Origin: a virus
Virus record (IMG/VR): IMGVR_UViG_3300027509_000004
Length of the DNA: 50,983 nucleotides
Strand: one strand, 5' to 3'
The notes under the pieces are model-generated. The model had not been told where the DNA came from. It saw nothing but the letters and a program-made list of their open reading frames with translations, and searched no databases. Shown in pieces: positions 14,660-47,841 of the stretch (positions are counted from its first letter, which is position 1; each line of letters begins with the position of its first letter). The position numbers were made by a program, and so were the translations under genes.

Positions 14660-17211
14660 TGGCCTTAACTAAAAACCTTTCAACACCTACAGGGGCTACC
14701 AAGAGCGTACAGGATACAGGAGCTTTGATTGACCCTGCTATGTACACCATAGACGGAGTATCTAGTGTGGCTCAGGCTGCCATAGGGGTGGCTAAAGACG
14801 TTAAAGCGGCTAGAGATAAGAAGAAGGCCTCTGCAAGACAGACAAAGAGACAGGACGCTTCAGATGCTCGGGCAGAAGCTTCAGCGGCTAGAGCACAGAA
14901 CGCAGAAAACAGGGCGGCACAAACTTTTGCCAACACTCAAGAAGACCGTGTTAAGAAGACCTTAGACAGTTCTTTTGAAGACGATGCTGAAAGAGTTGTT
15001 ATGCGTTTGGATAAGGTTCAACGGGGCATCTCTCAAAAAGGAGGTTCTCAGGCTCAACTCTCTCTAACACTGGAGTCAGAGACAACAGCTTTACTGCAAC
15101 AGTACCCCGGATATGAGGCAGAACTAGGGGCCTACATGCAGAAGAGAGGCTTCCAGTCTACCTTCTTCCAAGGTCTAGATGATGCTCAAAAGCAACACGT
15201 ATCTGAACGAGACAATCGATTGCAGAGACAAGAAGAGGCTAAAGATGTAGCTTTTCAGTCAGGCCTTGTTGATGAAAATACTCCTGAAAAGGAAGCTATA
15301 TCTATAGGCCAATCCATTCAAGCATACAAAGCAGAGACAGCTATTTTAAAAGAGCGTGCTCAAATCTTAAATGACAACAAGCGTATGTCTATTGAGGAGA
15401 GAAAAGCAGAGCAGGGCCAAATTGATAGGAAGATGGCACAAGCAGCTTCTAAAGGAGCTTCTACTATAACAGGTGCCGTCACTTCTGCTGTCTTGTCTCA
15501 AATGTCTAACGCCACTCCTGATAACTATAAACAGATTACTTCTAAGATACCCACTAAGATATTAGAGCTAGAAGCGGGCCGTGAGCAGCTATACCAAGAC
15601 TACGGATACAACGCAGATGCTATGAAAGCTATCGACAAAGGAATTGACGCCAGCAAGAAGATGCTCGTAGACATGTCCTCTGGGGATTACTCACAAGCAA
15701 AAGCTAATGCGACTTCTTTAAGTAACATGAAAAGCTCTTTCGGGCTTGACCTATACGAGGTCGCTCCTATTATGGGTATCGTGGACTCTCTTCCCGCTCC
15801 TATGCAAGACTCTATTTACTCTGGCACTGGCATGTTCAAAGGAATGATGCCTGAAATGCAGAAGGGGTTGCTGGACTCTATGCAGAGAATTGACAGCATG
15901 GAGAGGCAACGGTTTGAGTCTTTACAGAAAAATACTGGAGGACCAAAAGGAGATGAGCCCCGTCCACCTCTCGAAACTCTTTCTATTAAGGAAGCACAAG
16001 ATAGGGTTCAGTATGACTCTTTCAATCAAAAGGAGAGTCTAAGAAAGGTCATTGACCCTAACACTTCTCCAGAAGAAATGACTCCCAACTTAGACACTTT
16101 TATTGATTCTCAAGTCCACCTTCTCCCTGCTTTTGAACGAGTTATCTCTGAAAGCTCTAAATCAGGTGTTGAAGATGCTTTAATCGGCGTAGATAAAATA
16201 GCTTCTCCTCAAGTCGCTCAGGCACTAGAGATTGCCATGCAAAACCCTGCTTTCAAAGAAGAGGCGGAGATGGTTATGAGTTCCACTAGGAATCAAATGC
16301 AGAAAGCCTTAGACCTCGTATCTACCAATTCTAAAGAGACAGGGGGGATGTTCACTTCTGGCTTTGACCCTAGGGCGGGTAGATACTCTGCTATGTTTAA
16401 TGGAGACAGAGTAGATGGCGCCAAGAAAATGGCAGGAAATTTTGGAATAGGGGCGTCTCTTATAAGCAACGAAGATTTACGTCTTAGGGCTCTCAAGGAA
16501 GGCCCAAATCCTAAAATGGAACGTAAGATTGAAGTGTTGAACAAGGCTATGGATTTCTTAGCTAGAACCAGAGACCACGATAAGTCCGTCAAACCTAATA
16601 TTACAGAGCTTGAGTACCGTAACGCTTACGCCTCTAAAGACTTCTCTGGAGTTTTTCAAGACAATCCAGCCGAGTTGGGGGACACCTCAATTGACCCGTC
16701 GATGATAGATTACACGGAAGCTTCTTTTAAAGGGATGGCTCTTAGCTCTGCTTACAGGGTCAAAGAGGAATCCTTAGCTCCTGCGCTTGATAGTGCTGCG
16801 ACTTCTCTTAACTTGCCACCTGCGTTAGTCCATTCTATGGCCGACACGGAAACGGGACACCTCACAGGAGAGAACCGTGAGACAGTCACAAATAAGTGGG
16901 GGGCTAGGGGCATCATGCAAGTGACTAAACCAACAGCCGAAGAAATGGGATACTCATGGGAAGACATGTTAGACCCAGAGATTAACGCTAAGGCGGGTTC
17001 TGAATACATGTCAGACCAATTAGCTAACTTTAATGGAGACATAGAAGATGCTCTTATGGCTTACAACGCAGGACCTACAAAGGTTCGTAAGTGGATTAGA
17101 GAAGGACGGCCTATCGTCCAAGGCAAGTCTTGGCAAACAAACGCTTTTCCTTATGTAGAGAAAATCCTCTCTAACCTAGAAAACACACAGACCAACGAAG
17201 GAGACAACTAA
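14659..17211 (+). CDS. internal virion protein with C-terminal lytic transglycosylase (SLT) domain
   Basis: The C-terminus carries ETGH..(x)..GARGIMQVTKPTAEEMG..AGSEYM..LMAYNAGP, the E / GLMQ / AYNAG signature of SLT domains, as in T7 gp16. Confidence 0.75.
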   Translation: MALTKNLSTPTGATKSVQDTGALIDPAMYTIDGVSSVAQAAIGVAKDVKAARDKKKASARQTKRQDASDARAEASAARAQNAENRAAQTFANTQEDRVKKTLDSSFEDDAERVVMRLDKVQRGISQKGGSQAQLSLTLESETTALLQQYPGYEAELGAYMQKRGFQSTFFQGLDDAQKQHVSERDNRLQRQEEAKDVAFQSGLVDENTPEKEAISIGQSIQAYKAETAILKERAQILNDNKRMSIEERKAEQGQIDRKMAQAASKGASTITGAVTSAVLSQMSNATPDNYKQITSKIPTKILELEAGREQLYQDYGYNADAMKAIDKGIDASKKMLVDMSSGDYSQAKANATSLSNMKSSFGLDLYEVAPIMGIVDSLPAPMQDSIYSGTGMFKGMMPEMQKGLLDSMQRIDSMERQRFESLQKNTGGPKGDEPRPPLETLSIKEAQDRVQYDSFNQKESLRKVIDPNTSPEEMTPNLDTFIDSQVHLLPAFERVISESSKSGVEDALIGVDKIASPQVAQALEIAMQNPAFKEEAEMVMSSTRNQMQKALDLVSTNSKETGGMFTSGFDPRAGRYSAMFNGDRVDGAKKMAGNFGIGASLISNEDLRLRALKEGPNPKMERKIEVLNKAMDFLARTRDHDKSVKPNITELEYRNAYASKDFSGVFQDNPAELGDTSIDPSMIDYTEASFKGMALSSAYRVKEESLAPALDSAATSLNLPPALVHSMADTETGHLTGENRETVTNKWGARGIMQVTKPTAEEMGYSWEDMLDPEINAKAGSEYMSDQLANFNGDIEDALMAYNAGPTKVRKWIREGRPIVQGKSWQTNAFPYVEKILSNLENTQTNEGDN

Positions 17212-22575: not shown

Positions 22576-24258
22576 TTACGCTCCACATGAACCTCCTACC
22601 CCTGTAATGTCACACACATCGTGTGTCTCAAGGGCTTCTTCGAAAGTCTTTCCTAGTTTAACTACAGCTTCTCCATAGGCAACAGAGGTAAGGGGTTGTC
22701 CTCCTCGGGCCCCATCAGGGTAGCAAGTAAACCCTCTAAGTCGTGAAGCATACTTAGCGAGCAAGTCTCCAAACGGCTTAACAGTGTCTTCGTTGTTTGT
22801 TTTGGACCCCCAACTAGGAAGGTTAATTGTAGAGCTAATTGACATATCAACGTAGTCCTGTATGTCTGCTTGGAATTTAAGTCTTCGCTCGGGGTCATTC
22901 GCCAAGTCGATTGAGGTGTCAATTTCATCAGGGTTTACTCCATATATGTCTATTAATTCTTGTGCCGTTCCATCGACGACGTACTGGTAATGCCACCGTG
23001 AGCCACCTTTGAGGAAACGTCTTTTATAAGAGACTGCATAGAGAGGTTCAATTCCTGTAGTCGTACCAGCGAGGATTCCAATGCTGCCTGTGGGGGCGAT
23101 TGCCCTAACAGCGATTGGTCGAGATACTCCAAGCTCATCCGCAAAGCTGATAGCTGTTTTGTCACTAACTCCACGGTACGTCTGGAGCCACGAGTGTAGT
23201 TCGGGCGTAACTTCATATTTATGTCCTTTCTTTAAGAGCCATTCATGGATACCCATGAGGCCTAGTCCTAAGCGTCTGTTTCGTTCCCTAACCTCTGAGA
23301 CCTTACGGTAGGGGAGGTCAGCTCTAAGAGTGCCACAAAGTAGGAACTTTGTTGCGAGCTCAACAATCGTTGCCATTTCAGCAATTGAATCCACTCGTCC
23401 AAGGTTAATTGAGCCAAGATTACAGACATCTGAGTCGTCGGCTGAGGTGACTTCTGTACAAGCGTTGCGTAGCGTCTCATTTTCCTTGTCAAAGAAGTTG
23501 AAACTAAACCCCGGCTCGCCAGTCTTGAGAGCTTGTCCCACGTTTTTGAGAAATGTGTCACCGTAATCTCCTGTGGCCCAATAATTTGTAAGCCATTTAG
23601 TGTCGTAGTTAAGGCTAATATTGGTCATATCAAGAGGGGCGGGGAAGTTGAAGTCTTCTTGTTTAATGTCCCAAAGAGACTTTCCAGTAGAGCCTACGGC
23701 CATGTTATGCCAGTCTTTGGCGGTCAGGAAGTCTTGAGCGTCTCCGTGTTCCCAATTGAGGGAGGCATAGATAGCAGACCTTCGGGAGCCTCCTTGCATG
23801 ACATTACGACCAATTTCGTTAATCATCTGCATCTTGGGTATAGGGCCACTAGCTGTGCCACCTGTGCGTCCAAGGGGGGAGTCTTTAGGGCGATACACTG
23901 AGTAATCAATTCCAATACCGCCACCAGTCATAAGACAGGACTCGGAGCGCCATGATAGATTAGCCCAGTCTTCACGGGTGTCCTCTTCGGCTTTAAGGAG
24001 ATAACAGTTGTTAAAGAACTTAGCAGGTCTCCCTGCATAGTATAAGTAGCGCCCACCGGGGATGAACTTTAACTGTCGCATAATCTCGGTAAGCTGAGAC
24101 TTCTCGTCGGGTGTCATATCCTCTCGACACACATCCTCGACAAGGGTTCCACAAAGTTCATCCCAAGTTTCAGCGCCCTCATGGGAATACTTTTGGTTGA
24201 ATATGTCCTCGGAGAATTTACTCCTAAAGACGGGGTTTTTGTTACTTCTGTATTTCAC
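22576..24258 (-). CDS. nrdJ: ribonucleotide reductase, class II-type (single-chain)
   Basis: RNR active-site signatures NACTEV and CNLGSINL, and a C-terminal Cys pair. At 560 aa with no beta-subunit gene in the genome, the B12-dependent class is favoured. Confidence 0.75.
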   Translation of the reverse strand: MKYRSNKNPVFRSKFSEDIFNQKYSHEGAETWDELCGTLVEDVCREDMTPDEKSQLTEIMRQLKFIPGGRYLYYAGRPAKFFNNCYLLKAEEDTREDWANLSWRSESCLMTGGGIGIDYSVYRPKDSPLGRTGGTASGPIPKMQMINEIGRNVMQGGSRRSAIYASLNWEHGDAQDFLTAKDWHNMAVGSTGKSLWDIKQEDFNFPAPLDMTNISLNYDTKWLTNYWATGDYGDTFLKNVGQALKTGEPGFSFNFFDKENETLRNACTEVTSADDSDVCNLGSINLGRVDSIAEMATIVELATKFLLCGTLRADLPYRKVSEVRERNRRLGLGLMGIHEWLLKKGHKYEVTPELHSWLQTYRGVSDKTAISFADELGVSRPIAVRAIAPTGSIGILAGTTTGIEPLYAVSYKRRFLKGGSRWHYQYVVDGTAQELIDIYGVNPDEIDTSIDLANDPERRLKFQADIQDYVDMSISSTINLPSWGSKTNNEDTVKPFGDLLAKYASRLRGFTCYPDGARGGQPLTSVAYGEAVVKLGKTFEEALETHDVCDITGVGGSCGA

Positions 24259-24433
24259 TCAAATATCTTTCTGCTTCTTCTTTTGTTAGGAACAAAACTT
24301 TCTCTCTTGTGGGTGTCACACAATGGAGCCAGAAAAGGTTAGGCTTATACTGTGGATAATATATTGTCCAAGCCAAATATCCTGACGTTGTCTGACAATC
24401 TCTTTCCTTAATTCTATACTTCATATTTGTCAA
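24242..24433 (-). CDS. hypothetical protein (63 aa)
   Basis: ORF overlaps its neighbours by a few codons (operon packing). Confidence 0.4.
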   Translation of the reverse strand: MTNMKYRIKERDCQTTSGYLAWTIYYPQYKPNLFWLHCVTPTREKVLFLTKEEAERYLSEIQK

Positions 24434-24785
24434 ATTCGGCTAAAAGTCTAAGAGCCTCTTCTGAGTCTCCTATGATGAGTTCATCTAAAGTTCTAGAATA
24501 CATTTCTTTTAAAGTGTTAAGAGCTTTTTCTTGTTTTTTCAAATCATATGTTATGTTATGAGAGTAGTGAGACAAATCAAAGAAATCATTCAAATACGAA
24601 GGGTAGTTTCCATGAAGTTTTTTCTTTCTTAATTTTAAAGTGCCTTCTTTAAATTCTTTTTGGAGCTTCTCTAAAGTAAGGGGATTGGCCTCCTTTTTAA
24701 CAAAGGATGTTCTAATTTTTTTCTCCTTTTTAACTAACATCTCTGTTAGTCTTTGGCGGATATGTTTAATTTGCATTTGATTCAT
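24414..24785 (-). CDS. hypothetical protein (123 aa, K/E-rich helical)
   Basis: ORF only. Confidence 0.4.
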   Translation of the reverse strand: MNQMQIKHIRQRLTEMLVKKEKKIRTSFVKKEANPLTLEKLQKEFKEGTLKLRKKKLHGNYPSYLNDFFDLSHYSHNITYDLKKQEKALNTLKEMYSRTLDELIIGDSEEALRLLAEFDKYEV

Positions 24786-24789
24786 TGTA

Positions 24790-25255: not shown

Positions 25256-25257
25256 CT

Positions 25258-26141: not shown

Positions 26142-26239
26142 GTTATGTTCCTTTTGTTGGTGGCTTGGTGTTGTTAAAGGCCGCTATGAGTAACAATATA
26201 GAGACTGCTATAACAGACCAGTCAAGGGTAGTCATGTTG

Positions 26240-27164: not shown

Positions 27165-27205
27165 AATTTATCCTTGTTCAGCGGAAGAGAGACGACAGCA
27201 AAGGT

Positions 27206-36178: not shown

Positions 36179-36179
36179 C

Positions 36180-37511: not shown

Positions 37512-38319
37512 AAGATACTCCTAATTCTTCCAACGATTCTTTGAGGTAGTGATATTTACCCAAAAGAGATACCTCTTCTCTCTCTTGTGAGTATGTTCCT
37601 ATGTGTCTAGTCAAGTGACTGACTGTGACGTGTCCTACTTCATCTACTGTGAAGGAGAACTGATTACTAAACGCCATAGAGTTCTCTTCAGAACATTCAA
37701 AGAGTCTCTTCAGGCATTCGTCAGGGCTCGGGTAGATTCCGTACAATGAGGAGATGTAACCCCCAGAGAGGATACTACTTCTTTCAAATAAGCCCCTGTC
37801 GTCGTTTGATACAGGCTTAATTTGAATGTTGCGTGTCTGTAGGCCTTGTTTAGTTTGAGTGAAAGGAGCACGAGAACAAGCGTAAGCAATATATCTCTTA
37901 ACTTCTTTACCTTTACGAGAGCTCCAAGAGAAATTACTTAACCCGATATTGCGGATACGGAGGTCTAACTCTTCCACAGGGATAGTCTTTCTGTCGCTCC
38001 TAGGAGGTTCATCTACGAAGTCTTTAGGACATTCAAGGGAAAAACCGGAAGCTGAATACTTAGCCACGTATTCAGGAGAAGCCCGGAAATCATCTAGATT
38101 TTTACGTCGCTCTCTTTGTTGCTCGACAGTGCCAGCCGTGTTGTACAAAGATATTAGCTCTACCTCTGTTCTCTTGACTTCTGGGGGGAGATTCGTAACA
38201 ATCTCCTCTACATAAAAAGGAATGCCATCATAGAAAACAACAGAATCCTTTATCCGCATCCTCCAATCATTAATGGTCCCGTAGTCAGGGGCGAAGCTTT
38301 TTTTCTTTACCTTAGTCAT
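37495..38319 (-). CDS. hypothetical protein (274 aa) inside the ligase block
   Basis: ORF overlaps the upstream gene by 17 nt. No motif recognised. Confidence 0.45.
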   Translation of the reverse strand: MTKVKKKSFAPDYGTINDWRMRIKDSVVFYDGIPFYVEEIVTNLPPEVKRTEVELISLYNTAGTVEQQRERRKNLDDFRASPEYVAKYSASGFSLECPKDFVDEPPRSDRKTIPVEELDLRIRNIGLSNFSWSSRKGKEVKRYIAYACSRAPFTQTKQGLQTRNIQIKPVSNDDRGLFERSSILSGGYISSLYGIYPSPDECLKRLFECSEENSMAFSNQFSFTVDEVGHVTVSHLTRHIGTYSQEREEVSLLGKYHYLKESLEELGVSCADNL

Positions 38320-38353
38320 AACCGCGTATACTCCTTTTAAGTTTTATTTCTAT

Positions 38354-39163
38354 CTAGTGTCCAACAGCCGAAAGAAATGCCGGAACGACGTCAACTGAAC
38401 TTTCGTTTATAATTTCCCGGGCTTTAGTGTGCATAAAGTCTGGCAACACTTCTCCTGCCATCCACTGTTGTGTGGCTTTAACAGTTCGGTCAAAAACTTC
38501 TCCCATAAGGTCAGGAGAGAGGAGCCAAGCGTTAGACAATACACGGTACTCAACTCCGTACTCTTTAGGTCGGAAAGCACCAGCAGCCCCATAAAGAGAC
38601 CGACGCTCTACGTCTTGGTCATAAGTGAGGGAGTAGACACCTAAGGTGGCGTCTAAGTGTTTTACTAAAGAGCAGCAGTCTTTGAAGTGGTTCTCGTTGA
38701 ACGGGTCTGACACCATCTCAGATGTAAACCCTATGTGAATATGACCAGCAGCAGTACGCATAGTCCCTGTAGATACGTCAGGACGAGGGTTGACACCCAT
38801 AGAATATGCGTCATAATCTGGCTCGCAGCCTAGCTCAAGAGCCTCGTAGGGCTGTGCTGAGTAGACCTCTGGACTGAAATGGGCCACAGGGACGCCGGGG
38901 ACAGGGATAATGCCTGAGGGAAGCTGTGAGGTCATTGAAGCAAACACTGATTGGACCTTAGAGACAAAGTCTTCGCGAGTAGTCACAGGGTCAGTGTTAA
39001 ACTCACAGGCCATTCCGTCAATTTGGATTGCCCCGTCTTTAACGACGTGAGGATTTTCCTTGTTGCCGGGCAGTAGGCCGTGAGCACTTACAAACTCTTT
39101 AGTAGAAGAGTCAATTACAAAAACTTCAGGGTCACATCCGATTGTGATTAACTTGTTGGTCAT
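38354..39163 (-). CDS. COOH-NH2 ligase type 2 (phiEco32-like, GCS/GS superfamily)
   Basis: IGCDPEVFV / GHIHIGF / EYRVLSN repeats the E-x-E, H-x-H, E-x-R logic of GS/GCS-type ligases. The N-terminal GCDPE motif is as I recall for the phage COOH-NH2 ligase family. Confidence 0.55.
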   Translation of the reverse strand: MTNKLITIGCDPEVFVIDSSTKEFVSAHGLLPGNKENPHVVKDGAIQIDGMACEFNTDPVTTREDFVSKVQSVFASMTSQLPSGIIPVPGVPVAHFSPEVYSAQPYEALELGCEPDYDAYSMGVNPRPDVSTGTMRTAAGHIHIGFTSEMVSDPFNENHFKDCCSLVKHLDATLGVYSLTYDQDVERRSLYGAAGAFRPKEYGVEYRVLSNAWLLSPDLMGEVFDRTVKATQQWMAGEVLPDFMHTKAREIINESSVDVVPAFLSAVGH

Positions 39164-39206
39164 GATGATAGATTCCTTTCAAAGGGAAGAGGGGTGATTT
39201 AAAAGA

Positions 39207-40280
39207 CTAAGCAGTACGGTTAGACTCGTAAGCTTTTTGGAGTTCGACTTCTTTAGCGCAAGAGCCACAAAGAATAGACTTAGGGGCTACCGCAACAGTG
39301 CCTTTATCGTCAGAGTCCACGTTGGAAGTACACCAACAACAGAAAGCAGTGCCTTTAGAGAAGACTTCCAGTAACTCGCCTTCGCTCATCTCATATGGCT
39401 CAAGGACAAGCCCAACAGAAGAGGCGAGGGAAGACTTGGACGTGTCTACTTTTCTTTTGTTCTGGCTAAATCCGTGAACGTTACTGTAATTATTTCGATA
39501 GCTGTTAGTGACCCCACCACGGTAAGAGGCAGGGGGGAGAGGCTTTTTTGGTTTCACAGTCACCCGTTCTTCTTTACCGAACTCCTCGCCTACGGCAGGG
39601 ACGGCCCATCGAAATTCAACGTTTATGGGCAGAGAGTAGATGGTGTCCAACTTAACACGCCCCTTTCTAGCGCAAGCTAGACGTAGCATGTTGGCCTCAG
39701 AAGCCCAGAATAATTGTTTCTTATCTTCGGATAGAGCGAAACAGAGAGTGCGTTCATCGTTGCGTACCATACAGATTTCATTTGTAGTGAAGTCATAGTA
39801 CACAAGAGCCCAAGCCCCGGAGTAGCCAGAACGAAGCTTAGAAAGAGTATCCTTAATCCCGTTCTCGGAGATATTGTTAAGGATTTCTTCGCTGTCTGTG
39901 CCCCATGACCCGTCAAAGGTTAGGTCGGACAAGTCACTGACAGTGCCATTGTGTGCGCCGACAATGTTCTCTGTCATGAAAGGGTGAGTGTTCTCGAAAA
40001 TATGTTCACCCTTAGTCGCATGACGGTTATGCCCGATAAGAACAGAGTGTGATGTGCTTCGAAGCATCGTCTTGACAGCTTCAATACCTAAAAAGGTTGG
40101 AGCGTCTACAGGAGCTTTGATGATTTTGCAATCATCTGGCTCACGGCTCCCTTTTGCCCAAGGGACAGAGGCTATACCAGTGCCGTGGGCTCCTCTGACA
40201 GTATCAAAGAACAGTAAGTCTTTGAAAGCGTCTACTGATGCTGAATTTAAATCTCCAGCTACTCCTACGTGTCCACACAT
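39207..40280 (-). CDS. class II (Ntn) glutamine amidotransferase-like protein with C-terminal zinc ribbon
   Basis: Starts MCGHVG (catalytic Cys2), then RGAHGTG, GHNRHATKG and AHNGTV. The C-terminus carries CCWC...CGSC. SD GGAG lies 5 nt upstream. Confidence 0.7.
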   Translation of the reverse strand: MCGHVGVAGDLNSASVDAFKDLLFFDTVRGAHGTGIASVPWAKGSREPDDCKIIKAPVDAPTFLGIEAVKTMLRSTSHSVLIGHNRHATKGEHIFENTHPFMTENIVGAHNGTVSDLSDLTFDGSWGTDSEEILNNISENGIKDTLSKLRSGYSGAWALVYYDFTTNEICMVRNDERTLCFALSEDKKQLFWASEANMLRLACARKGRVKLDTIYSLPINVEFRWAVPAVGEEFGKEERVTVKPKKPLPPASYRGGVTNSYRNNYSNVHGFSQNKRKVDTSKSSLASSVGLVLEPYEMSEGELLEVFSKGTAFCCWCTSNVDSDDKGTVAVAPKSILCGSCAKEVELQKAYESNRTA

Positions 40281-40315
40281 ATAGTCTCCATTTTGTTGAT
40301 GTGGTTAATATTAGT

Positions 40316-41137
40316 TTATTTAGTCGCGGCGTACTTCTCAACGAGACTAAAACAGTATCGTTCAAAAGATGAGCCTAACATTCTCTCTGGGTGTGCTTGA
40401 ATGCACAGAGAACGGGTATTATTGCAGTATATGATTTCTGCGTCTTGCCGCATAAGGTCAAAGTCAGACATTTTTCTTTTGGCGAAAAACTCCAGCCTGT
40501 TACGAGCCATAGGAAGAGGCAACTCCTTTTCATGAGGGGAAGCCGAAAGAGTGTCCTTTCCCGTCGTCTTGTTGAAAGTTACCGCCAATATTTCCCTGTT
40601 AGAAACCTTATGGGAAGGCACCATCATTTGATGATGGGTGGAAGTGACTCTTTCGAACACTTGAGGTTCTTTTATCAAACGTACAGCGTGTGGTGATAGA
40701 TGCCGTTTATTGCCGATATTTTGTATCATAGTGCCACCACTAAGAACATTCAGCAGTTGGGCTCCGCGACAAATACCGAGCTTAAACGTGTCCTTTCCGA
40801 GAACAGCTAGGTTCTTCTCATAGAAGTCTCGTTCAGGGGAATAAGCCCTAGTGGCATAGTGCTTCGGTTGATTATAGAGCGAAGGGGATATGTCAGGCCC
40901 ACCAGCAAAGACTATTATATCTGCCTTTGAAGGATTATAGGTAACAGTGTGTCCTCTGATGACTAGCCAATTCTGTATTTCGACACCGGGGTGCCAACTA
41001 GGGTCTCCAATAGACCCCGCACAGAAGACGGCGAGGGGGTTCTTAGTCTTCTCAAAAGGAGACTTTTTAGTTTTTTGTTCAAGCAACTTCTTTCTCCTTT
41101 GCTCTTTCTTTCTTCTTTTTCTTTTGGACATTTGCAT
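40316..41137 (-). CDS. class I glutamine amidotransferase / peptidase C26 (gamma-glutamyl hydrolase-like)
   Basis: GGPDISPSLY, GICRGAQLLNV (nucleophile elbow) and TSTHHQ, as in PuuD-type enzymes. Basic K/R-rich N-terminal tail. Confidence 0.65.
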   Translation of the reverse strand: MQMSKRKRRKKEQRRKKLLEQKTKKSPFEKTKNPLAVFCAGSIGDPSWHPGVEIQNWLVIRGHTVTYNPSKADIIVFAGGPDISPSLYNQPKHYATRAYSPERDFYEKNLAVLGKDTFKLGICRGAQLLNVLSGGTMIQNIGNKRHLSPHAVRLIKEPQVFERVTSTHHQMMVPSHKVSNREILAVTFNKTTGKDTLSASPHEKELPLPMARNRLEFFAKRKMSDFDLMRQDAEIIYCNNTRSLCIQAHPERMLGSSFERYCFSLVEKYAATK

Positions 41138-41144
41138 TTTTCTC

Positions 41145-41172
41145 TTGACAAATCTGAAATATGTGGTATAAT
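41145..41172 (+). promoter_or_regulatory. consensus sigma70-type promoter P2 (TTGACA-16 nt-TGgTATAAT), antisense to the surrounding operon
   Basis: TTGACA 41145-41150 and TATAAT 41167-41172, with an extended -10 TG at 41164-41165. It sits on the plus strand between two minus-strand genes. Confidence 0.5.
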
Positions 41173-41216
41173 ACCTTTAAGGGGCAGAGTTAAGGAACCT
41201 AATAATAGGCACTAAC

Positions 41217-41666
41217 TTATCTCTTTGTCCAATCCCCGCTTTCAATAAGCGACTCCACTCGAAAATCCCTGTTATAGTAGTAGATTTCAACAGGTTCCTG
41301 TAAAGTGTGAGGGGTAGTCTCCGCTCTTAAGTAGAGGGAAGCGTCTTGTCTCTCAAAGTAATACCCTTCGAGACCATCAAGACTTTGCCCTAAAGTTGGC
41401 TCAACAATCTCGTAGATTTCAACTACTACAGGTTCAACAGTAGTCGTGTCAACCTCAGGATGTTCAGCTACTAGGCCGGGGTAGCCTCCGTGTAACCCAA
41501 AGAGGATACCATCAACGGTATCTTTTCCAATGAATTTGGCACGAGAGCCTAGCCTTAGGGCTTCGTAGTTGCCACATCCTTCACGGAGAGTACCGTATAC
41601 AGCGAACTTATCGCCAACAGTTAGGGTGTTAGAGGAGGGTGTGATAGATTGGTTATAGGCTGTCAT
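41217..41666 (-). CDS. gamma-glutamyl cyclotransferase-like (GGCT / AIG2 family)
   Basis: FAVYGTLREG ... GYPGLV ... VVVEIYEI ... LDGLEGY matches the YGTL / E signature of GGCT and GGACT proteins. Confidence 0.65.
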   Translation of the reverse strand: MTAYNQSITPSSNTLTVGDKFAVYGTLREGCGNYEALRLGSRAKFIGKDTVDGILFGLHGGYPGLVAEHPEVDTTTVEPVVVEIYEIVEPTLGQSLDGLEGYYFERQDASLYLRAETTPHTLQEPVEIYYYNRDFRVESLIESGDWTKR

Positions 41667-41669
41667 AGG

Positions 41670-42071
41670 TTATCGGTCCTTGTTCATAAAATCTTGTTCC
41701 CAGTATTGGGGGCCTACTATAACTGGGTGGCCATTGAGGGTTAGGTCTTCCGCTATTCTCCATTTGAGTTCATCGAGAGATAGTTGTACGATGTCCCAAT
41801 CGTCTGTGAAGGCGAAATAGGTTGGCTCTACTTTTGCAGACTCAATCTTTCGGGGCTCCATTGCAGAAGTCTCTAAGCAAAAGAGAAAGAGCTCAATCTC
41901 ATCAGAGGCTAAGACATACTTAGGGTCTCCTTCGTAGAGAGAGGCCTCAAGAGGAGGAATTTCCGTAGGCTCATCGGGGTCGATTAAAACGAAATCATCC
42001 ACTTCAGGCCGAGAGATAAACTCACGGTCTCTAGGGTCGGCCTTAGGGAAAGTGCTGGTGACTTTTGCCAT
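41670..42071 (-). CDS. hypothetical acidic protein (133 aa)
   Basis: ORF only. D/E-rich. Confidence 0.4.
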   Translation of the reverse strand: MAKVTSTFPKADPRDREFISRPEVDDFVLIDPDEPTEIPPLEASLYEGDPKYVLASDEIELFLFCLETSAMEPRKIESAKVEPTYFAFTDDWDIVQLSLDELKWRIAEDLTLNGHPVIVGPQYWEQDFMNKDR

Positions 42072-42076
42072 ATAGG

Positions 42077-43660
42077 CTATCCTTTCTTGTAGTTAGGGTT
42101 AACACGGCCCATAGGCAGCAACCAGTGACGGTACGCCCCACTGTAGTCAGAAGACCTGTAGTTTCCGTTTAGGTACGGCATACCGTCTTCTGTTAAAGGG
42201 ACAAAGCCGAGAGCTAGCGCTTCCGCAAGGTTTGTTCTTATCTGGAATCTTCCCTCTCCTCTTGTACGAAGTATCATAACCTGTGTGGCAGACCTCGTAT
42301 CGTAGCAAGCGGAAGCAGAGAGAGCAGGAGCTCCATTATTCTTGAAGCCGTATAGTCCTCCTACTCGAGGCATATTTTCTGGACTGAAACTGTAGCTAAC
42401 CTTAGACCTTGTAGCTAAGAGAGTCTCATCAGTGACAGCGTCTCTTGTAGGAGGCATCTCGAAGGCAGGTTCCGATTGACGCTCAAGCTGTTTTTCACTG
42501 ACAGTTGTCTTGAAGTATAGGGCAGACGTCTTTTTGTCAGTTAGGGCTAAGTGCCAGCCTTCTTTTTGGAATATGTCGCCATACTTTTTGTGTATCTCAA
42601 GAGGCATGGAGAAGAGAACTCCCGTAGTACACTGTCCTCCGCTTTTGTTTGTGTAACAATCTCTATCTAATTCCTTTTTTAAGGCCTTCACAATATCTTC
42701 GGCCACTTTCTCCTCTAAGAGGAAATTTGTGGTTCTGTGATTGAAGAAGAAAGAAGAGGCACCACAACAACTTAACAAGCCTTGATGAGTTGTGCCTATT
42801 TTGACATATCGAGTGGGGGTGCGATACCCTGCCAGCTCATCCATTATAGTGTTCATACGGCTGTTGTTTCCAGACTCCATTACGTGCTTTCGGAGACGAG
42901 ATGTTGATGATAGATTCTGCAAAGGGCTGAAGTCTCCTCGTAGGCTGTCCCGAAGAGTGAACGCCTTAGGGCGTTTTTTCTTGTCGCCGAACTTTTCCGG
43001 CCAAGAAGTCTTAAGGCCAAAACAAGCCTCTAGGTCGGACATTGCAAATCGAGAGATGAAGGTAGGTTTAGACAAGGGGTAGTCCTTTCTTAGTAGGTCA
43101 GTGTAAACGTCAGAATCGGGGGTAGATTTTCCTATATAACAGGACTCGCTAGGCTTCCTCGCGCTTAAATAGTAATAAGAACCTTTATGGAAGCAGTAAC
43201 GACCCCCAAGAAGATTCCCTGAGGTCACTTTAAAAATTATGTTTTCAGGAACTTCGTCGGCGGTGAGGTATTCGCCCTCTTTTCCGGGATAGAGCCCGGG
43301 GCGTCTAAAGGCCTTTAAAGGTTCTTCCCTTACTATGCTGGTGAGAGCTTGACGAGCCATTTCAGGAGAAATAGGCACTCTTACTTTGTCCATGTCTCTT
43401 TTCAAGATGCCTGTAAGAGTCTTATAGAAACGTGTCCCTCTCTGCCCTAAACCAAGAGCAGAAGAAGAGCGTATATAAAAACGAACACCCGGCTTATTAA
43501 TTTCATCCACATGAAGACGGTGAGGGTGACGGACAGAAGCAAAAATAGAGGACATAATAATAGACACCTTCAAGAAAGGGAGAGAAGAGGGAATAAGGTC
43601 GAACACCAACATAGCCCGAGGAAGACTGAAAAGCTTCAGTAGCCGCTTATCAAGACTCAC
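42077..43660 (-). CDS. large hypothetical protein (492-527 aa)
   Basis: Long ORF; either a GTG start at 43660 or ATG 43555 (MSSIFASVRH..). No motif recognised. Confidence 0.5.
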   Translation of the reverse strand: MSLDKRLLKLFSLPRAMLVFDLIPSSLPFLKVSIIMSSIFASVRHPHRLHVDEINKPGVRFYIRSSSALGLGQRGTRFYKTLTGILKRDMDKVRVPISPEMARQALTSIVREEPLKAFRRPGLYPGKEGEYLTADEVPENIIFKVTSGNLLGGRYCFHKGSYYYLSARKPSESCYIGKSTPDSDVYTDLLRKDYPLSKPTFISRFAMSDLEACFGLKTSWPEKFGDKKKRPKAFTLRDSLRGDFSPLQNLSSTSRLRKHVMESGNNSRMNTIMDELAGYRTPTRYVKIGTTHQGLLSCCGASSFFFNHRTTNFLLEEKVAEDIVKALKKELDRDCYTNKSGGQCTTGVLFSMPLEIHKKYGDIFQKEGWHLALTDKKTSALYFKTTVSEKQLERQSEPAFEMPPTRDAVTDETLLATRSKVSYSFSPENMPRVGGLYGFKNNGAPALSASACYDTRSATQVMILRTRGEGRFQIRTNLAEALALGFVPLTEDGMPYLNGNYRSSDYSGAYRHWLLPMGRVNPNYKKG

Positions 43661-43722
43661 GCTACACCTTTCAGCCCAAATATGGGGCTATGTCGGTGTT
43701 CGTAATAGAGAGGCGTACTACT

Positions 43723-43896
43723 TTAAGCAGTATTCAGAATCTCCATTATACGTGAAACGGCTTGCTCTCGTCCGTGAGGCCCAAGACCGCCTTTAGTGTG
43801 GTGCTTACGATAAGCGATAGGGTCGTGGTCAAGAGTTGTTGTTGTGCCGTCTTTGTTAGGGACTACGATACGAATGTTTGAGGATTGTTGAGTCAC
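43723..43896 (-). CDS. small hypothetical protein (57 aa, GTG start)
   Basis: AGGAG lies 8 nt upstream of GTG 43896. Translation VTQQSSNIRIVVPNKDGTTTTLDHDPIAYRKHHTKGGLGPHGREQAVSRIMEILNTA. Not in the ORF track. Confidence 0.4.
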   Translation of the reverse strand: MTQQSSNIRIVVPNKDGTTTTLDHDPIAYRKHHTKGGLGPHGREQAVSRIMEILNTA

Positions 43897-44065
43897 TTTT
43901 TATTCTCCTATAGATGATGATGATAGATTATTTGGTCCCAGCCCACCCATCGAAGGGCAGTTAAGCGATGCTTTCACAAGGGGGTATTGGCCATCTCCTC
44001 TTTCACTCGAAGAGAGTCGTGCGTTCCAATGCCTCAACCGTACCAGCGGAACTGGGATAAGAGGG

Positions 44066-44680
44066 TTAGTCGTTGAAGGGGGCTGTTGGGTATCCGTCTT
44101 CGGCCCATTCAATATAAGCGCGGGCAGCCGCCAACCTACTCCCATTCGCATTAGGATTAACCGACATTCTAAGGCCCAAAAGACTGCAGAAATATCCATT
44201 GACTACGTATTTCTCATAGGACTTCGGCACACGAGGCTCAGGTGGGATTATAATCGCTTGAAAGTTGTAACGAGGAGACTTTCGGGCTACCTTACGGGTG
44301 GACGAAATCCATTTTTGTCCTTTATACCAAATCTCGTCCCCGCCACAAGGAAGTCTTCGACATTTCTCTACCCGGGAGGGTGAGTAGAGTACTAGACACT
44401 CGACACCTACGGGCATATCCTTAAAAAGTGTGTAAGGGGCTGTCGCAGGGGTTGCGGAGCTAGTGATAGATTGTTCGGAGGCCCCCGCTCGGCGTACTAA
44501 CTTAATCCGGGAAGCAGGTTTATTGTAGAACAGGATGTTAGGGGGGTCTAGGGTTTTCAGGTCTAAAAAGACTTCCCCGTCTAGATTAGAAAGGACTTGT
44601 GTCACCTCGTACTCGTCGTACTCGTAGACAGCAGCCGATTTGAACGTGACAATGTCACCCTTAGCAAATACAGTTTTCAT
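44066..44680 (-). CDS. hypothetical protein (204 aa)
   Basis: ORF only. Confidence 0.45.
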   Translation of the reverse strand: MKTVFAKGDIVTFKSAAVYEYDEYEVTQVLSNLDGEVFLDLKTLDPPNILFYNKPASRIKLVRRAGASEQSITSSATPATAPYTLFKDMPVGVECLVLYSPSRVEKCRRLPCGGDEIWYKGQKWISSTRKVARKSPRYNFQAIIIPPEPRVPKSYEKYVVNGYFCSLLGLRMSVNPNANGSRLAAARAYIEWAEDGYPTAPFND

Positions 44681-44723
44681 AATTAATTCTCCAAGTTTTC
44701 TTAATGATTACAAGAGGTTAGGC

Positions 44724-45077
44724 CTATTCTTCTTCGTGAGATTCCAGAAGGGTCTCCAGATACTCTGCTACTTGTTGTGCCTGTTCGGTGTGTAACACGG
44801 ACTCACCTATTTCAGACGCCGCTATGAGATAGATAGTGGTCTTTGATGGCACAAATCCTAAGACAATGAGGCTCAACAGGAGAGAGGTTACAAGGCTTTT
44901 AACGGGGATGTGTTTTTTCACCGACCTGTATGTCGCTACTTCTGTAGATACCAGCATTCCAATAATGGCGATAGGAAGAGGACTAAGAATTAAAACTAAA
45001 ACAAAATAGGTATGCACCATCTCTACTAGATTCTCAGACACATCCGCTAGATATAGCAGCCATGATAGATTATTCAT
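44724..45077 (-). CDS. membrane protein (117 aa, ~3 TM)
   Basis: GGAG lies 7 nt upstream of ATG 45077. Hydrophobic helices and an acidic C-terminus. Confidence 0.5.
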   Translation of the reverse strand: MNNLSWLLYLADVSENLVEMVHTYFVLVLILSPLPIAIIGMLVSTEVATYRSVKKHIPVKSLVTSLLLSLIVLGFVPSKTTIYLIAASEIGESVLHTEQAQQVAEYLETLLESHEEE

Positions 45078-45088
45078 GAAATTCTCCG

Positions 45089-45202
45089 TTAAGGTAGGTA
45101 GTTGAGTGAAAAACAGAAGGCCTTTGAAGCCGATACGAGGAGGCCTTGACTTACCATAAGTTCTGATATGTAAGACCAGTAGAGGAACATGTGATAGTCC
45201 AT
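45089..45202 (-). CDS. tiny hydrophobic ORF (33-37 aa)
   Basis: AAGGAG precedes ATG 45202 / ATG 45190. Weak support. Confidence 0.25.
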   Translation of the reverse strand: MDYHMFLYWSYISELMVSQGLLVSASKAFCFSLNYLP

Positions 45203-45206
45203 CTCC

Positions 45207-45311
45207 TTAGAACCCCGGCATGATGAAGCCGACTCCGAGCATAAGCCCCATAGATGTCACCATGAAGGCCATAGACAGGAAGCCCTTAATGTCCGAATTA
45301 CGATTGTTCAT
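45207..45311 (-). CDS. tiny membrane peptide (34 aa)
   Basis: AAGGGAGG lies 6 nt upstream of ATG 45311. Translation MNNRNSDIKGFLSMAFMVTSMGLMLGVGFIMPGF. Confidence 0.35.
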   Translation of the reverse strand: MNNRNSDIKGFLSMAFMVTSMGLMLGVGFIMPGF

Positions 45312-45435
45312 CGAGGCCTCCCTTAGCGAAATACTCCCTTAAGCGACAGTAGCCTATGACAAGACGAAGGTACGTCATACCTAGGAACATAACTGCAACA
45401 AGAAGCAGAGATAGTGTGAATTTAAAGACTGCCAT
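45298..45435 (-). CDS. tiny membrane peptide (45 aa)
   Basis: GGGGAG lies 7 nt upstream of ATG 45435. Translation MAVFKFTLSLLLVAVMFLGMTYLRLVIGYCRLREYFAKGGLDEQS. Confidence 0.35.
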   Translation of the reverse strand: MAVFKFTLSLLLVAVMFLGMTYLRLVIGYCRLREYFAKGGLDEQS

Positions 45436-45437
45436 AG

Positions 45438-45635
45438 CTAAGCTCCCCGAGCTATCGCCTGTGTCTCAACAGAGAAGTTGGCCTTTGACGCCGACACGTC
45501 TTCTTCAAGCGAGTCCCGAACAGAGGTCAAGTGGCTATTGCCAACGAGAGCTGATTGAGAGGCGTCGAAGGAAGGGGTTTTCTTGACACTCTTACAAGCG
45601 AGTGGACGAAAGCCTAAGGGTGTATTGATAAGCAT
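45438..45635 (-). CDS. hypothetical protein (65 aa)
   Basis: AGGAG lies 9 nt upstream of ATG 45635. Confidence 0.4.
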   Translation of the reverse strand: MLINTPLGFRPLACKSVKKTPSFDASQSALVGNSHLTSVRDSLEEDVSASKANFSVETQAIARGA

Positions 45636-45674
45636 GGATAATTCTCCTAGAGGGTGTGTTGTGTGTGTGAAAGA

Positions 45675-45765
45675 GGACTATATGAGAGAGACGTATCACC
45701 TCTCTCGGCGTCCCTAGAGGGGAGAATAGAGAAGCGGAAAGTGATACGTCTCACTGATATAGTCC
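45675..45765. promoter_or_regulatory. long imperfect inverted repeat (25-nt arms, 41-nt loop) between two early genes
   Basis: GGACTATATGAGAGAGACGTATCAC (45675-45699) against GTGATACGTCTCACTGATATAGTCC (45741-45765): 23 of 25 positions are complementary and no U-tract follows. Confidence 0.5.
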
Positions 45766-45785
45766 GTGAAAAAGGGGGGCTGCCC

Positions 45786-46007
45786 TTATATTGTGGGTAG
45801 TCCGTGTTCAGCCACTAGAGCCGACCACCAGCCACGAGTTAGACTGTCACGCATAATAGCTGGGACAGAAGCCTCTTTAAGTGTCTGTCGGGCAATCTTA
45901 CCCAAACGGATAGCCGCTTCATTCTTATATCCAAGCAGCTTATAGGCGTCTTCAAATTGACGCTTTGCGATAGCAACCGAGTTACTTTGATTTATTTTTT
46001 TAGCCAT
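45786..46007 (-). CDS. hypothetical early protein (73 aa)
   Basis: Start set at ATG 46007 (GGGAGAAATAGCT ATG). The longer track ORF (to 46067) lacks an SD. Confidence 0.45.
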   Translation of the reverse strand: MAKKINQSNSVAIAKRQFEDAYKLLGYKNEAAIRLGKIARQTLKEASVPAIMRDSLTRGWWSALVAEHGLPTI

Positions 46008-46132
46008 AGCTATTTCTCCCGAGGCACGATGATGATAGATTAACGACAAACAGCCACATACAAGCACCGATGTAAGGTGTCTCGATGTAACTTATACGTG
46101 ACTGTTTAGGTTGGTTGGTATCCGGTTTTGCG

Positions 46133-46663
46133 TTACGCTGTTGCGTCCGCTTCTTCACCAGTAACTTCTTCTTCGGCAGGTGTCACCGTAGTGATAGCCG
46201 CTTCAAGAGCCGCAACTTGCGCCGCATCAAACTCTTGCTTACCGTCAGCAGACGCCTTGTTAATACGCTTGAGAAGCGTAGTCAAAGTCTTCTGAATGTC
46301 GATAGGTGTATATGTGGGTTCAGGTTTGAACTCTGTCCACATGACAGCCATAGCGCCGTCCATATCCGTAACTTTATCAGCCGCCGGGATGAACTTAGCA
46401 GTAAGGTCACCCTTAGCTGGAGCCCATACCATCTTGCCGAATGCTTCGAAGTAATTGCGAAGAGCATTAGTACGAGCACCTTTTGGCATCGCCTCGATAA
46501 GTTGAGTAGCGAGGGACGTTTCCGTCACCGCTTCGACGTGTTGGATAATGCTTACCGCAGCAATTTGAATGTCACGGTCTAGCCTTGCGCCACGCCCTTT
46601 GATTGACTTAATAGCTGCTGTAATCGCAACTGCTGTAGTCATTAGTTCCATAGTCTTAGCCAT
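46133..46663 (-). CDS. hypothetical early protein (176 aa), first gene of the leftward arm
   Basis: GGAG lies 8 nt upstream of ATG 46663. A/T/E-rich and helical, with an acidic tail. Confidence 0.5.
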   Translation of the reverse strand: MAKTMELMTTAVAITAAIKSIKGRGARLDRDIQIAAVSIIQHVEAVTETSLATQLIEAMPKGARTNALRNYFEAFGKMVWAPAKGDLTAKFIPAADKVTDMDGAMAVMWTEFKPEPTYTPIDIQKTLTTLLKRINKASADGKQEFDAAQVAALEAAITTVTPAEEEVTGEEADATA

Positions 46664-47841
46664 AGGGTTTCTCCATGTTGGCAGTTAAAAGAACATACCG
46701 ACATCATTACCGATATGCTCTAAGTCACTGCCAATAGGCCATAACTACACTGCTCTTTCAAGCGGCATAGCATAGCCTATCGGTGTAACTCGTGGTGAAT
46801 AGCCACACATGGGGTCTTTACGCAATCCACTGCATTAACACGCATCTATATCAATTTGTTGAAATCCTAATATGTCAGTCACGCTGTAGCACGCAGAATA
46901 AACCATCCCTGTTACGGGCTTGGTTAAAGTCGCACTACATTTGCTGAATTGCTGATAGCCAATATATTCACCGCCTAGACCTATTAAAGCCTAGGTTCTT
47001 GTTTCCAAACGCTATAGTTTGTTGAAGCTCTCCGGCTATAGTTGTTAGCTACCACCTTCCGAATTCAACCCCCACATCTAGCGAAAGTCACCTACACCGA
47101 CTAACCACACCTATTACAAGGGGGCCATTGCGTAAAACAAGCGGGACTATAGCTTGCTATATTGTGCCAAGTTATAAGGGCACTATCCTATCCTTTGCAT
47201 AGTGATTACGGTTCCGAGTTAGCCCGTACATCTTACTAATCCTCGCACCTATGCTAGGCACGAATTGACGCTTTTAACGCCCGCACTAATCCGCACTGTG
47301 TTCTTTGTTACGCATGGCTATCCCGTTCTTTGCGATATAGCGAGACCCCTATCTAAAGGGATTGGCACTATATGGCCCTATTAAGGCAGACTATTCTCAA
47401 GTCCGTCAACATGCGCAAGGCAAAGATTTTGCACTTACGTTTTTAGCTATGGTCAAAAGCCGGGTTTGTCTGGCCCGTCTTTCGATGATTTGAATATGAG
47501 GGAATAAAAGAGGCCTCGCATTGATATAAATCAAACACTCTAATTTTTATTCAAACTTTCTTTAAAAGTGTAGCATTATCAATAGGTTAGGGATGGAATT
47601 ATTTTCAATCTTTTTTATGAGGCGGCTGTTCAAGGGACATTTGCTTAGGATTATATTCATAGCCTAGGTATTGATTCCTATAATAGCCTCCAATGTGGCA
47701 TTCATGGTCTTATTGTTATAATGTAACATTCCCCTTTTTATATTATAATGTATAGGTAGGATTATGATAGATTGCCTCGTATGTAGGCATATAATCCTAT
47801 TCATATCAATCGTATAGGGATTTATTCCTAGGCTGTTAGGG

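Follow-up and report, generated by a model that had tools for sequence, protein, structure and literature searches.

The 50,983-nt window analysed here, the whole of IMG/VR virus record IMGVR_UViG_3300027509_000004, is a complete, circularly assembled metagenomic phage genome, and our subject is a short word that recurs along it in one orientation, the 9-mer TGATAGATT, which reads AATCTATCA on the − strand. The genome derives from contig k141_383862 of ENA ERZ27241782. The genome is organized in two arms. A rightward late arm (~288-22,500, + strand) carries the portal, tail, internal virion protein and lysis genes, whereas a leftward early/middle arm (22576..46663, − strand) holds the replication genes together with an amidoligase cluster, and its sense strand bears the word. 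The leftward arm consists of small early genes, the amidoligase cluster, and genes for a primase/helicase, DNA polymerase A, endonuclease I and ribonucleotide reductase. Between the arms lies a non-coding control region of 1.7 kb (46664-48418), and the large terminase gene spans the circular junction. The two ends of the window are identical over 127 bp (1-127 = 50857-50983), an overlap of the circular assembly that also accounts for GCACTATAAGG appearing with the same flanks at 75 and 50931. The true genome length is therefore ~50,856 bp, and because no copy of the word falls in the overlap, the counts below are unaffected.

A pattern search and an independent script, applied to both strands of the window, find 12 copies of TGATAGATT on the + strand and none on the − strand, with AATCTATCA absent from the + strand throughout. 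The 12:0 count and all 12 coordinates agree with an earlier reading made from the letters alone (hereafter, the sequence-only reading), which had also put the expectation correctly at less than one copy per strand: dinucleotide shuffling yields 0.48 copies on average (largest value 5; 0 of 100 shuffles reached 12), and Markov models of order 1-4 yield 0.2-0.5. Composition thus predicts fewer than 0.5 copies. TGATAGATT is the most frequent of all 9-mers in the window, the runner-up being an unrelated 9-mer with 6 copies, and the 39-48 kb interval contains 8 of the 12, again as first described. Copies with one mismatch are at background level, occurring at 9616, 36806, 37495 and 40694 on the + strand (not at 36816 and 40693, as previously listed) and at 3006 and 4736 on the − strand. 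Since those at 36806 and 40694 retain the 8-mer core, the true unit is ATCTATCA followed by a pyrimidine, and not only the 9-mer. Read on the − strand, this core plus T or C is present in 14 forward and 0 reverse copies, 13 of them in the early arm or the control region. When the flanks are aligned in the same reading, the common part is AATCTATCA and then T or C, with nothing beyond; the extension that the sequence-only reading attributed to several copies, the 14-mer AATCTATCATCATC, occurs in full only twice.

The copies, all given here as − strand features, are spread over diverse contexts. The one nearest the early end, 47765..47773 (cAATCTATCAt), belongs to the non-coding control region, where it is part of a modest hairpin (z = −2.3) and precedes the first early gene by 1.1 kb. 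To its left, 46033..46041 is intergenic, 25 nt upstream of ATG 46007; 45063..45071 occupies codons 3-5 of gene 44724..45077 (ATGAATAATCTATCA), a gene start that recurs twice in the relative L002; 44464..44472 encodes QSIT at codon 70 of gene 44066..44680; 43921..43929 is intergenic, 24 nt upstream of GTG 43896; and 42908..42916 encodes NLS at codon 249, midway along a gene for a 527-aa early protein. The copy at 41642..41650 covers codons 6-8 of the GGACT/GGCT gene, while that at 39166..39174 ends 2 nt before the ATG (39163) of the COOH-NH2 ligase gene. Between them is the core-only copy 40694..40701 (cATCTATCAc), known to the sequence-only reading as a one-mismatch copy; the other core-only copy, 36806..36813 (tATCTATCAt), is within the amidoligase gene. 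Further along, 35077..35085 overlaps the TAA with which the ATP-grasp gene ends and precedes ATG 35029 by 47 nt; 31013..31021, at codon 617 of the DNA polymerase gene, toward the 3' end, precedes ATG 30961 by 51 nt; and 23953..23961 falls at codon 100 of the ribonucleotide reductase gene, the last of the leftward arm. The sole late-arm copy, 16703..16711, is antisense to codon 682 of a gene for an SLT-domain virion protein; it shares the DNA strand of the other copies, and its position is not conserved in relatives. The distances to ATG 39163, GTG 43896, ATG 46007 and ATG 35029 and the placements in codons 3-5 and 6-8 stand as the sequence-only reading gave them, as does its assignment of QSIT to three genes, while NLS is encoded in three genes rather than the four it counted.

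No near-identical phage records were found, none of the sequenced phages is close, and a search of viral contigs with the DNA polymerase protein alone gave no matches. By protein sequence, the portal shares 46-49% identity with its counterparts in ICBM2, PA11 and CW02, all Zobellviridae phages, and the polymerase and primase are ~34% and ~42% identical, respectively, to pelagiphage proteins. The same word is enriched in the same orientation in at least 13 further related genomes (denoted by L numbers), whose proteins are only 30-75% identical. Relatives reached through the 527-aa early protein (42-45% identical) carry the 8-mer at 5:0 in L002 and 7:0 in L004, where the two figures give copies in the two orientations. 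This protein (42077-43660, − strand) is unmatched in Pfam, PHROG, NCBIfam and PDB, and its homologues among 5.8 billion database proteins number only two (42-45% identical). Further loci were collected by protein alignment alone, which introduces no bias toward the word, and they give 6:0 in L022, 9:0 in L023, 12:1 in L029, 9:0 in L037, 3:0 in L034 and 7:0 in L065, with L072 and L082 also bearing it. Genomes found later by way of an HNH-like protein add 9:0 in L233, 4:0 within 3.8 kb of L237 and 10:0 within 8.7 kb of L238. Pooling 11 related genomes (212 kb) gives 77:1, where ~3 copies would be expected on each strand. The core ATCTATCA plus Y does not vary among the 77 copies, whose consensus is (A>C)-R-TCTATCA-Y and whose flanks have near-zero information content. 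One variant, GTCTATCA, is tolerated at 9:0 in the same pool. The word-bearing genomes range from 42 to 55% GC.

Individual positions are conserved as well, with orthologous copies occurring in genomes whose proteins are 42-68% identical. The word stands 2 nt upstream of the COOH-NH2 ligase ATG in the window, L002 and L004 alike, and in a shifted register at the same start in L029 and L023 (0 and 4 nt before the ATG). It is found at the ATP-grasp stop, ahead of a small pre-primase gene, in both the window and L002, and the core marks the 5' end of the GGCT gene in the window (codons 6-8), L002 (codon 7) and L004 (codon 16). A simple gene caller places 51 of 85 early-arm copies in coding sequence, divided among the three frames as 7, 20 and 24, and the remaining 34 between genes. 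Exact retention in one orientation among relatives, orthologous positions, and occurrence in three frames as well as in intergenic DNA together strongly support a conserved, polar signal that acts at the nucleic-acid level and is neither coding nor compositional. The proposal of a functional polar signal in the sequence-only reading is borne out in this respect, including the presence of the same word and strand bias in related genomes.

We measured placement relative to start codons independently of gene calls for 110 copies in 14 genomes. In 11 copies, the word overlaps the ATG that opens an open reading frame (RTCTATC-ATG), and in 7 it lies 0-3 nt before such an ATG. These 18 copies (16%) occupy the spacer between the Shine-Dalgarno (SD) sequence and the ATG, compared with 0.5% of random positions, and a typical arrangement in L029 and L238 is AAGGnnA-ATCTATC-ATG. 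Placement 4-60 nt upstream of starts is not enriched (12% versus 9% of random positions), and 72% of the 110 copies are away from starts. The closeness to start codons described in the sequence-only reading therefore holds for the SD-to-ATG spacer and not for the upstream class. It looks as though start proximity is best explained by an 8-mer ending in CAT that fits the SD-to-ATG spacer, the only unconstrained sequence in a compact genome. Fusion to the start codon reads as such a fit, since the nick sites of Pseudomonas putida phage tf, discussed below, show the same fusion.

The spacing of copies is regular and follows a gradient. In the window, neighbours are ~0.5-1.7 kb apart near 47 kb and 4-7 kb apart near 24 kb (rho 0.65), and gaps widen away from the early end in all 10 related loci tested (rho 0.6-0.93). 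In about half of the genomes, copies also keep apart from one another, with a minimum gap above that expected for uniform placement (P = 0.027 for the window, P < 0.001 for L029). Late-arm copies are few in word-bearing genomes (window, L149 and L233), and all are on the DNA strand of the early copies.

A similar pattern is known from mapped DNA interruptions, the localized single-strand (sci) sites. Phage tf has 14 ligatable nicks at 5'-TACT/RTGMC-3', all in the top strand and 11 of them within the genome's left half, and similarly placed one-strand sites in LUZ24, PaP3 and phiMR299-2 are putative only (PMC3517423). The function of the tf nicks has been offered as a hypothesis only, that of easing the start of packaging, and the same authors state that the distribution of nicks was never surveyed (PMC3517423). 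In the tf record HE611333 (L145), we count the tf word at 14:0, with 12 copies in early-arm sense and 2 antisense in late genes; the putative LUZ24 sites (L146) divide as 8+1 and the window 9-mer as 11+1. The start codons of tf_04, tf_15 and tf_41 are themselves supplied by nick sites (TACT/ATGAC, TACT/GTGAC) in HE611333. The gap gradient recurs in tf and LUZ24 (rho 0.69 and 0.71), as do large minimum gaps (P = 0.014 and 0.08). The annotated sigma-70 promoters of tf do not coincide with its nick sites. The early arms of the window and tf have a module in common that comprises COOH-NH2 ligase, amidoligase, GATase, ATP-grasp, AIG2/GGCT, primase/helicase, polymerase and endonuclease I. A separate element of these phages, distinct from the nick word, is CCAAGGGTA in LUZ24 (6:0, at 129, 14882, 25737, 28076, 29939 and 45570) and CCAAGGGT in tf (10:3), which has copies in both terminal repeats and in a bidirectional terminator.

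Other lineages carry sister words, namely TGCTATCA, TGGTATCA, TACTATCA and GGTCGGTCA, which are likewise strand-exclusive and dispersed, with the orientation and placement of the window word. As a null, we used 69 comparable loci, in which the top dispersed 9-mer has 4-5 copies (maximum 8) and the top 10-mer 3-4 (maximum 6). Clearly outside this null are the window clade, the GGTC clade, tf and LUZ24. The word GGTCGGTCA(T) occurs at 9:0 in L042, 6:0 in L043 and 8:0 in L047. The L028 word, AATGGTATCATC, is borderline, at the null maximum; TACTATCA in L058 is suggestive only; and the L258 word, the 10-mer ATGCTATCAT, has 5 copies in ~10 kb, above the typical null for loci twice as long, although it has no formal grading. 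When aligned (ATC-TATCA, TGC-TATCA, TGG-TATCA, TAC-TATCA, GTC-GGTCA, TAC-TATGA(C) of LUZ24 and TAC-TGTGA(C) of tf), the words suggest a single series that includes the tf/LUZ24 sites, with a variable 5' half and a conserved 3' block. Possible intermediates toward TACTRTGMC are the L058 word TACTATCA, with the reservation just given, and TGCTATCA and TGGTATCA in other lineages. These words follow phage lineage rather than host, because PA11 has the LUZ24 word at background level only even though it shares its host species with LUZ24. For the group as a whole, we give no host, as the labels of metagenome-assembled genomes on related contigs are inconsistent mis-binnings: complete, phage-sized contigs of the group (L240-L260) are binned as Pseudanabaena, Phycisphaeraceae, Woesearchaeota, Saccharibacteria, Colwellia and others, and are evidently mis-binned phage genomes.

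Several other repeated words were noted. GAAGTATC in L057 and TTGATGAAT in L035 are not above background. CAGAGACA, present at 12:0 on the + strand of the window (6175-15332 and elsewhere), reflects coding bias, with 8 of the 9 copies in called late genes reading x-Glu-Thr-x in one frame; the same is true of AAGTCATCA in CW02, where 6 of 6 copies read Asp-Asp-Phe/Leu in one frame. A second strand-exclusive word in L029, ATCGACAT (9:0, 2438-16093), lies within genes in several position-mod-3 classes and may be either coding bias (Ile-Asp-Ile) or a second signal. A near-palindrome in L058, TTAACATTTGTTAA, has five intergenic copies upstream of genes (2242-9950), and TGTACATTA/TTAATGTAC occur at 9:9 in L241; both are likely to be operators or promoter elements with no connection to the polar word.

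Taken together, we propose, with a probability of about one half, that the word is the recognition site of a phage-encoded, sequence-specific nicking enzyme, that is, a localized nick site of the tf class with a new specificity in a mostly uncultured group. The site would be 5'-(A)ATCTATCA(Y)-3' on the − strand, the sense or non-template strand of the early and middle genes, and the packaged genome would carry localized, ligatable interruptions in this strand only, as in tf, the phiKMV-like phages and T5. By alignment with TACT/RTGMC of tf, the predicted cut is ATCT/ATCA, which for a copy at p..p+8 on the + strand would fall in the − strand between p+4 and p+3. Among the options raised by the sequence-only reading, strand-specific nicking is the best fit, as the sites and the mapped nicks of tf agree in all formal respects tested: like tf/LUZ24-type sites, they have a sharp consensus, a single strand, a bias to the early half, and a number, strand and approximate position that are conserved. 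For the window phage itself, the nicking, the identity of the enzyme and the purpose of the nicks are what we infer from these likenesses.

A weak candidate for the cognate enzyme is a very basic, HNH_3-like protein of 95 aa (49051..49338, + strand) that contains DVHHKDGNPLNN and is encoded in the late operon just upstream of the terminase gene. It would act on DNA bearing AATCTATCAT, cutting one strand. Its family has 631 database relatives; in a sample, 21 of 25 members match HNH_3 (best E = 6e-9), and D54, H57, N61, N69 and N78 are invariant. An AlphaFold model (predicted local distance difference test score, pLDDT, of 80) has two helices followed by a beta-beta-alpha unit. The gene adjoins the terminase gene in every ATC-clade genome whose region could be examined, and distant members of the family accompany different words in L042 and L058. 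Nicking homing endonucleases of the HNH_3 type, such as I-HmuI, cut one strand at asymmetric sites. Among the larger window proteins, no HNH protein, RNA polymerase or sigma factor is seen, and sequence searches of the unknown early proteins against PDB, NCBIfam and Pfam give no matches. Endonuclease I is the only protein that all three word-bearing complete genomes (window, tf and LUZ24) have and that the two without a word, PA11 and CW02, both lack; it is a weak lead as a word-linked enzyme, since only five genomes enter the comparison. The 176-aa first early protein (the tf_02/LUZ24 gp2 family) was rejected as the reader, as it is also present in PA11 and does not track the word, and the 527-aa, 133-aa and 274-aa proteins were rejected for distributions that are too narrow or too broad.

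A number of observations weigh against nicking by such an enzyme. In the late arms of relatives (portal- and tail-centred loci, 1.36 Mb), the word is at background, with 52 versus 39 copies on the two strands and 41.5 expected per strand. Late-arm copies are thus at chance frequency, and because enrichment is confined to the early arm, polarity by DNA strand is inseparable from polarity by transcript. The strand agreement of late-arm copies in the window, L149, L233, tf (two copies) and LUZ24 is equally predicted by avoidance of the word in late mRNA. The close structural, cultured relatives PA11, CW02, ICBM2 and HTVC115P are without such a word. With respect to the candidate enzyme, the window protein scores below the Pfam cut-off for HNH_3 (E = 1e-4, 22.3-22.4 bits, versus 24.8), and a fold search with its model is not significant, the best hits being the HNH nuclease Cap5 at E of about 2, with a lowest value of 1.8. 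In CW02, a distant family member occurs without a word, and in L035 a clear member accompanies just one copy of it. Since the family is absent from tf and LUZ24, one homologous enzyme for the whole word series does not follow from the data. Finally, the 6 of 9 positions that ATCTATCAY has in common with the LUZ24 word TACTATGAC are suggestive rather than conclusive.

The main rival places the signal in RNA. In this scenario, which we consider unlikely, a sequence-specific endoribonuclease or an RNA-binding protein recognizes AAUCUAUCA in early and middle transcripts and, like T4 RegB or RegA, shuts off or tunes early expression, late mRNAs being immune for lack of the word. Nearly all copies are indeed on the early/middle sense strand and densest over the earliest genes, the sense strands of late genes lack the word in motif-bearing genomes, and the 16% of copies situated exactly between SD and AUG are where cleavage or binding would block translation; lineage-specific words would likewise imply a phage-encoded reader. 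However, the 72% of copies away from starts lie inside genes in three frames, the flanks are devoid of structural information, and the copy at 47765 is in non-coding DNA ahead of the first early gene. Searches gave neither an RNase or RNA-binding domain nor an Rfam match in the window, and the formally identical tf sites are physical DNA nicks. A translational operator or RegB-like target would have most of its sites in initiation regions, where we find 18 of 110; a general mRNA cleavage signal is still compatible with this distribution. Improbable in our view is a role in transcription, whether as a short promoter or initiator used by a phage-modified or unrecognized RNA polymerase or as a non-template pausing or antitermination element (ops- or nut-like) reloaded along a long operon. 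The orientation matches the transcripts, the copies at 46033, 43921, 35077 and 31013 lie 20-51 nt upstream of SD-bearing gene starts, a copy in L023 stands between a terminator-like hairpin and a 5' hairpin, and RTCTATC-ATG could yield leaderless mRNAs. Yet the class 4-60 nt upstream is at 12% versus 9% for random positions, and many copies are mid-gene. The operator option of the sequence-only reading is disfavoured as well. Nothing is conserved beyond 9-10 nt, with no −10, −35 or AT-rich flank; the ATG-fused copies have their SD upstream, outside any transcript that the word could initiate; searches of the window detected no phage RNA polymerase, sigma factor or NusG-like protein; and the tf sigma-70 promoters are off the nick sites. 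The word as a −35 element was also rejected, as only the copy at 47765 has a TATAAT at 17 nt.

We regard as very improbable a polar DNA signal read by the host, whether a Chi-like sequence acting against RecBCD/AddAB that enters from the first-injected end or a translocase-orienting sequence. An over-represented 8-mer in one orientation relative to a genome end, and densest there, is what such a signal would resemble, but the same word occurs in phages of 42-55% GC that probably have different hosts, sister lineages have other words, and only LUZ24 of the two phages with a common host species, LUZ24 and PA11, has its word. Furthermore, known Chi sequences are G-rich, and nucleotide-exact conservation at orthologous positions is not required of Chi. 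The Chi-like option is accordingly disfavoured by words that follow phage lineage rather than host. Extremely doubtful is a priming site for a T7 gp4-like primase/helicase, made up of two tandem (N)NTC units (AATC-TATC, GGTC-GGTC) on the lagging-strand template of forks leaving the control region. T7 primase sites have a GTC core, which the GGTC variant contains, and all of these phages encode a gp4-like primase/helicase. Primases recognize ~3 nt, however, and have no need of a 9-nt word; the tandem pattern does not hold in the sister words TGGTATCA and TGCTATCA; and PA11, CW02 and ICBM2 have the same kind of primase/helicase without the word. Next to no weight can be given to the view that base composition, codon usage or recurrent protein motifs produce the word as an artefact, which the comparisons made here already refute. 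In the coding DNA of these phages, it is common for 8-mers such as TGCTGGTG to have 6-10 dispersed copies on one strand only, and CAGAGACA reaches 12:0 by coding bias. In contrast to these, the word exceeds the shuffle and Markov predictions as well as the 69-locus null, has non-coding copies and copies in three frames, and is exactly conserved across genomes with saturated synonymous sites.

The remaining features of the window concern the control region and the early arm. Repeats in the control region include three copies of GGTTCCGCTTT (48114, 48151 and 48201, − strand reading) and two of TAGGAATGGAATCCTAA (47939 and 47991), and a rightward promoter with perfect sigma-70 consensus (48196-48224, TTGACA-17-TATAAT with TG) overlaps the third GGTTCCGCTTT repeat; they may represent operators or origin iterons. 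Immediately upstream of the copy at 47765 are two rightward promoter-like sites (47656-47684 and 47695-47722), and a terminator-like hairpin (48032-48048) follows that copy. A small rightward RNA with UGAUAGAUU, complementary to all early-mRNA copies, is conceivable but unsupported, and the idea of an antisense small-RNA seed was dropped for want of conservation evidence. GCACTATAAGGG, on the + strand at 35331 and at 75/50931 (two distinct copies, given the end overlap), is similar to a T7-type promoter core (CACTATAGGG); the window yielded no gene for a phage RNA polymerase to match it. The amidoligase cluster (35084-41666, − strand) encodes GGACT/GGCT, Peptidase_C26 (a class I GATase), a class II GATase, COOH-NH2 ligase, a 274-aa protein, amidoligase and a RimK-like ATP-grasp protein. 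It is common to LUZ24-like phages and the Zobellviridae PA11 and CW02, and does not track the word. For a 107-aa protein (24965-25288, − strand), the match is confined to domain Ia, the NAD+-binding N-terminal part of DNA ligases (Pfam Nlig-Ia, E = 2e-7), and no complete DNA ligase gene is seen in the window.

Site-specific nicks in phage DNA have been known since T5, and their function and most of the enzymes that make them are a 60-year-old puzzle. If the word marks nick sites, this feature extends to a large environmental phage clade and comes with a natural specificity series (ATCTATCA, TGCTATCA, TGGTATCA, GGTCGGTCA and TACTRTGAC) whose rules can be measured. These rules, one strand, minimum spacing and a density gradient toward the early end, constrain models of function. 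Such phages would also be a source of new 8-9-bp nicking endonucleases as reagents, and the nicks could explain breaks in long-read data. Should an HNH-type nickase be responsible, the puzzle becomes a tractable system in which enzyme and word co-vary. Should the signal instead act in RNA, it would represent a new code for early shutoff. A broader generalization, possible but doubtful at present, is that uncultured podoviruses forming a large and unsurveyed group, along with LUZ24-like phages, mark the non-template strand of the first-expressed arm about every 1 kb with a lineage-specific 8-9-mer on a shared template (NNN-TATCA-Y and variants), each read by a small, fast-evolving, terminase-adjacent nickase of the HNH type, with the gradient of nicks serving a function in the start of packaging or ejection, or in strand-specific entry of transcription or replication factors.

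When compared to known systems, the window word is closest to the nick sites of tf and the matching putative sites of LUZ24, PaP3 and phiMR299-2. Both are sharp 9-mers with 12-14 copies on one strand, mostly in early-arm sense with one or two antisense copies in the late arm, and both show widening spacing, sites at start codons, similar positions among relatives and a word that varies by lineage, in genomes with a convergent two-arm layout and a homologous amidoligase/primase/polymerase module. The differences are that the word itself is not the same, that the window has Zobellviridae-like structural genes, as judged by its portal, that neither tf nor LUZ24 has the HNH_3-like candidate gene, and that the late arm of the window clade is essentially without copies. 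Moreover, the tf sites are mapped DNA nicks, whereas those of the window are known from sequence alone. Literature searches on the word itself and on subsequent studies of the tf/LUZ24 nickase or transcript maps turned up nothing past PMC3517423.

Other phages also have uneven, one-strand nicks at a consensus in virion DNA, including the phiKMV-like phages (5'-CGACxxxxxCCTA/CTCCGG-3') and T5/BF23 (5'-R/GCGCRGG-3'). They differ in having ~4-5 major sites, a longer or looser consensus and unrelated genome modules, and in T5 the consensus is present on the un-nicked strand too. In phiKF77, nicks are repaired early in infection and are back late (PMC3517423). The T4 RegB targets (GGAG, in the SD of early genes) are similar to the window word in being short, carried by early mRNAs, enriched at initiation sites and absent from late messages; unlike it, they are 4 nt long and inside the SD itself, compared to an 8-9-nt word that is mostly away from starts in a phage with no RNase found. 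Chi and the window word are both polar, over-represented 8-mers, with Chi being host-set and G-rich and the window word following phage lineage. As for the candidate enzyme, it resembles I-HmuI-type and terminase-associated HNH proteins (HK97 gp74) in its HNH_3 core, predicted beta-beta-alpha unit and terminase-adjacent gene, while differing from them in its length of only 95 aa and in having no recognizable separate DNA-binding domain beyond a basic helical N-terminus.

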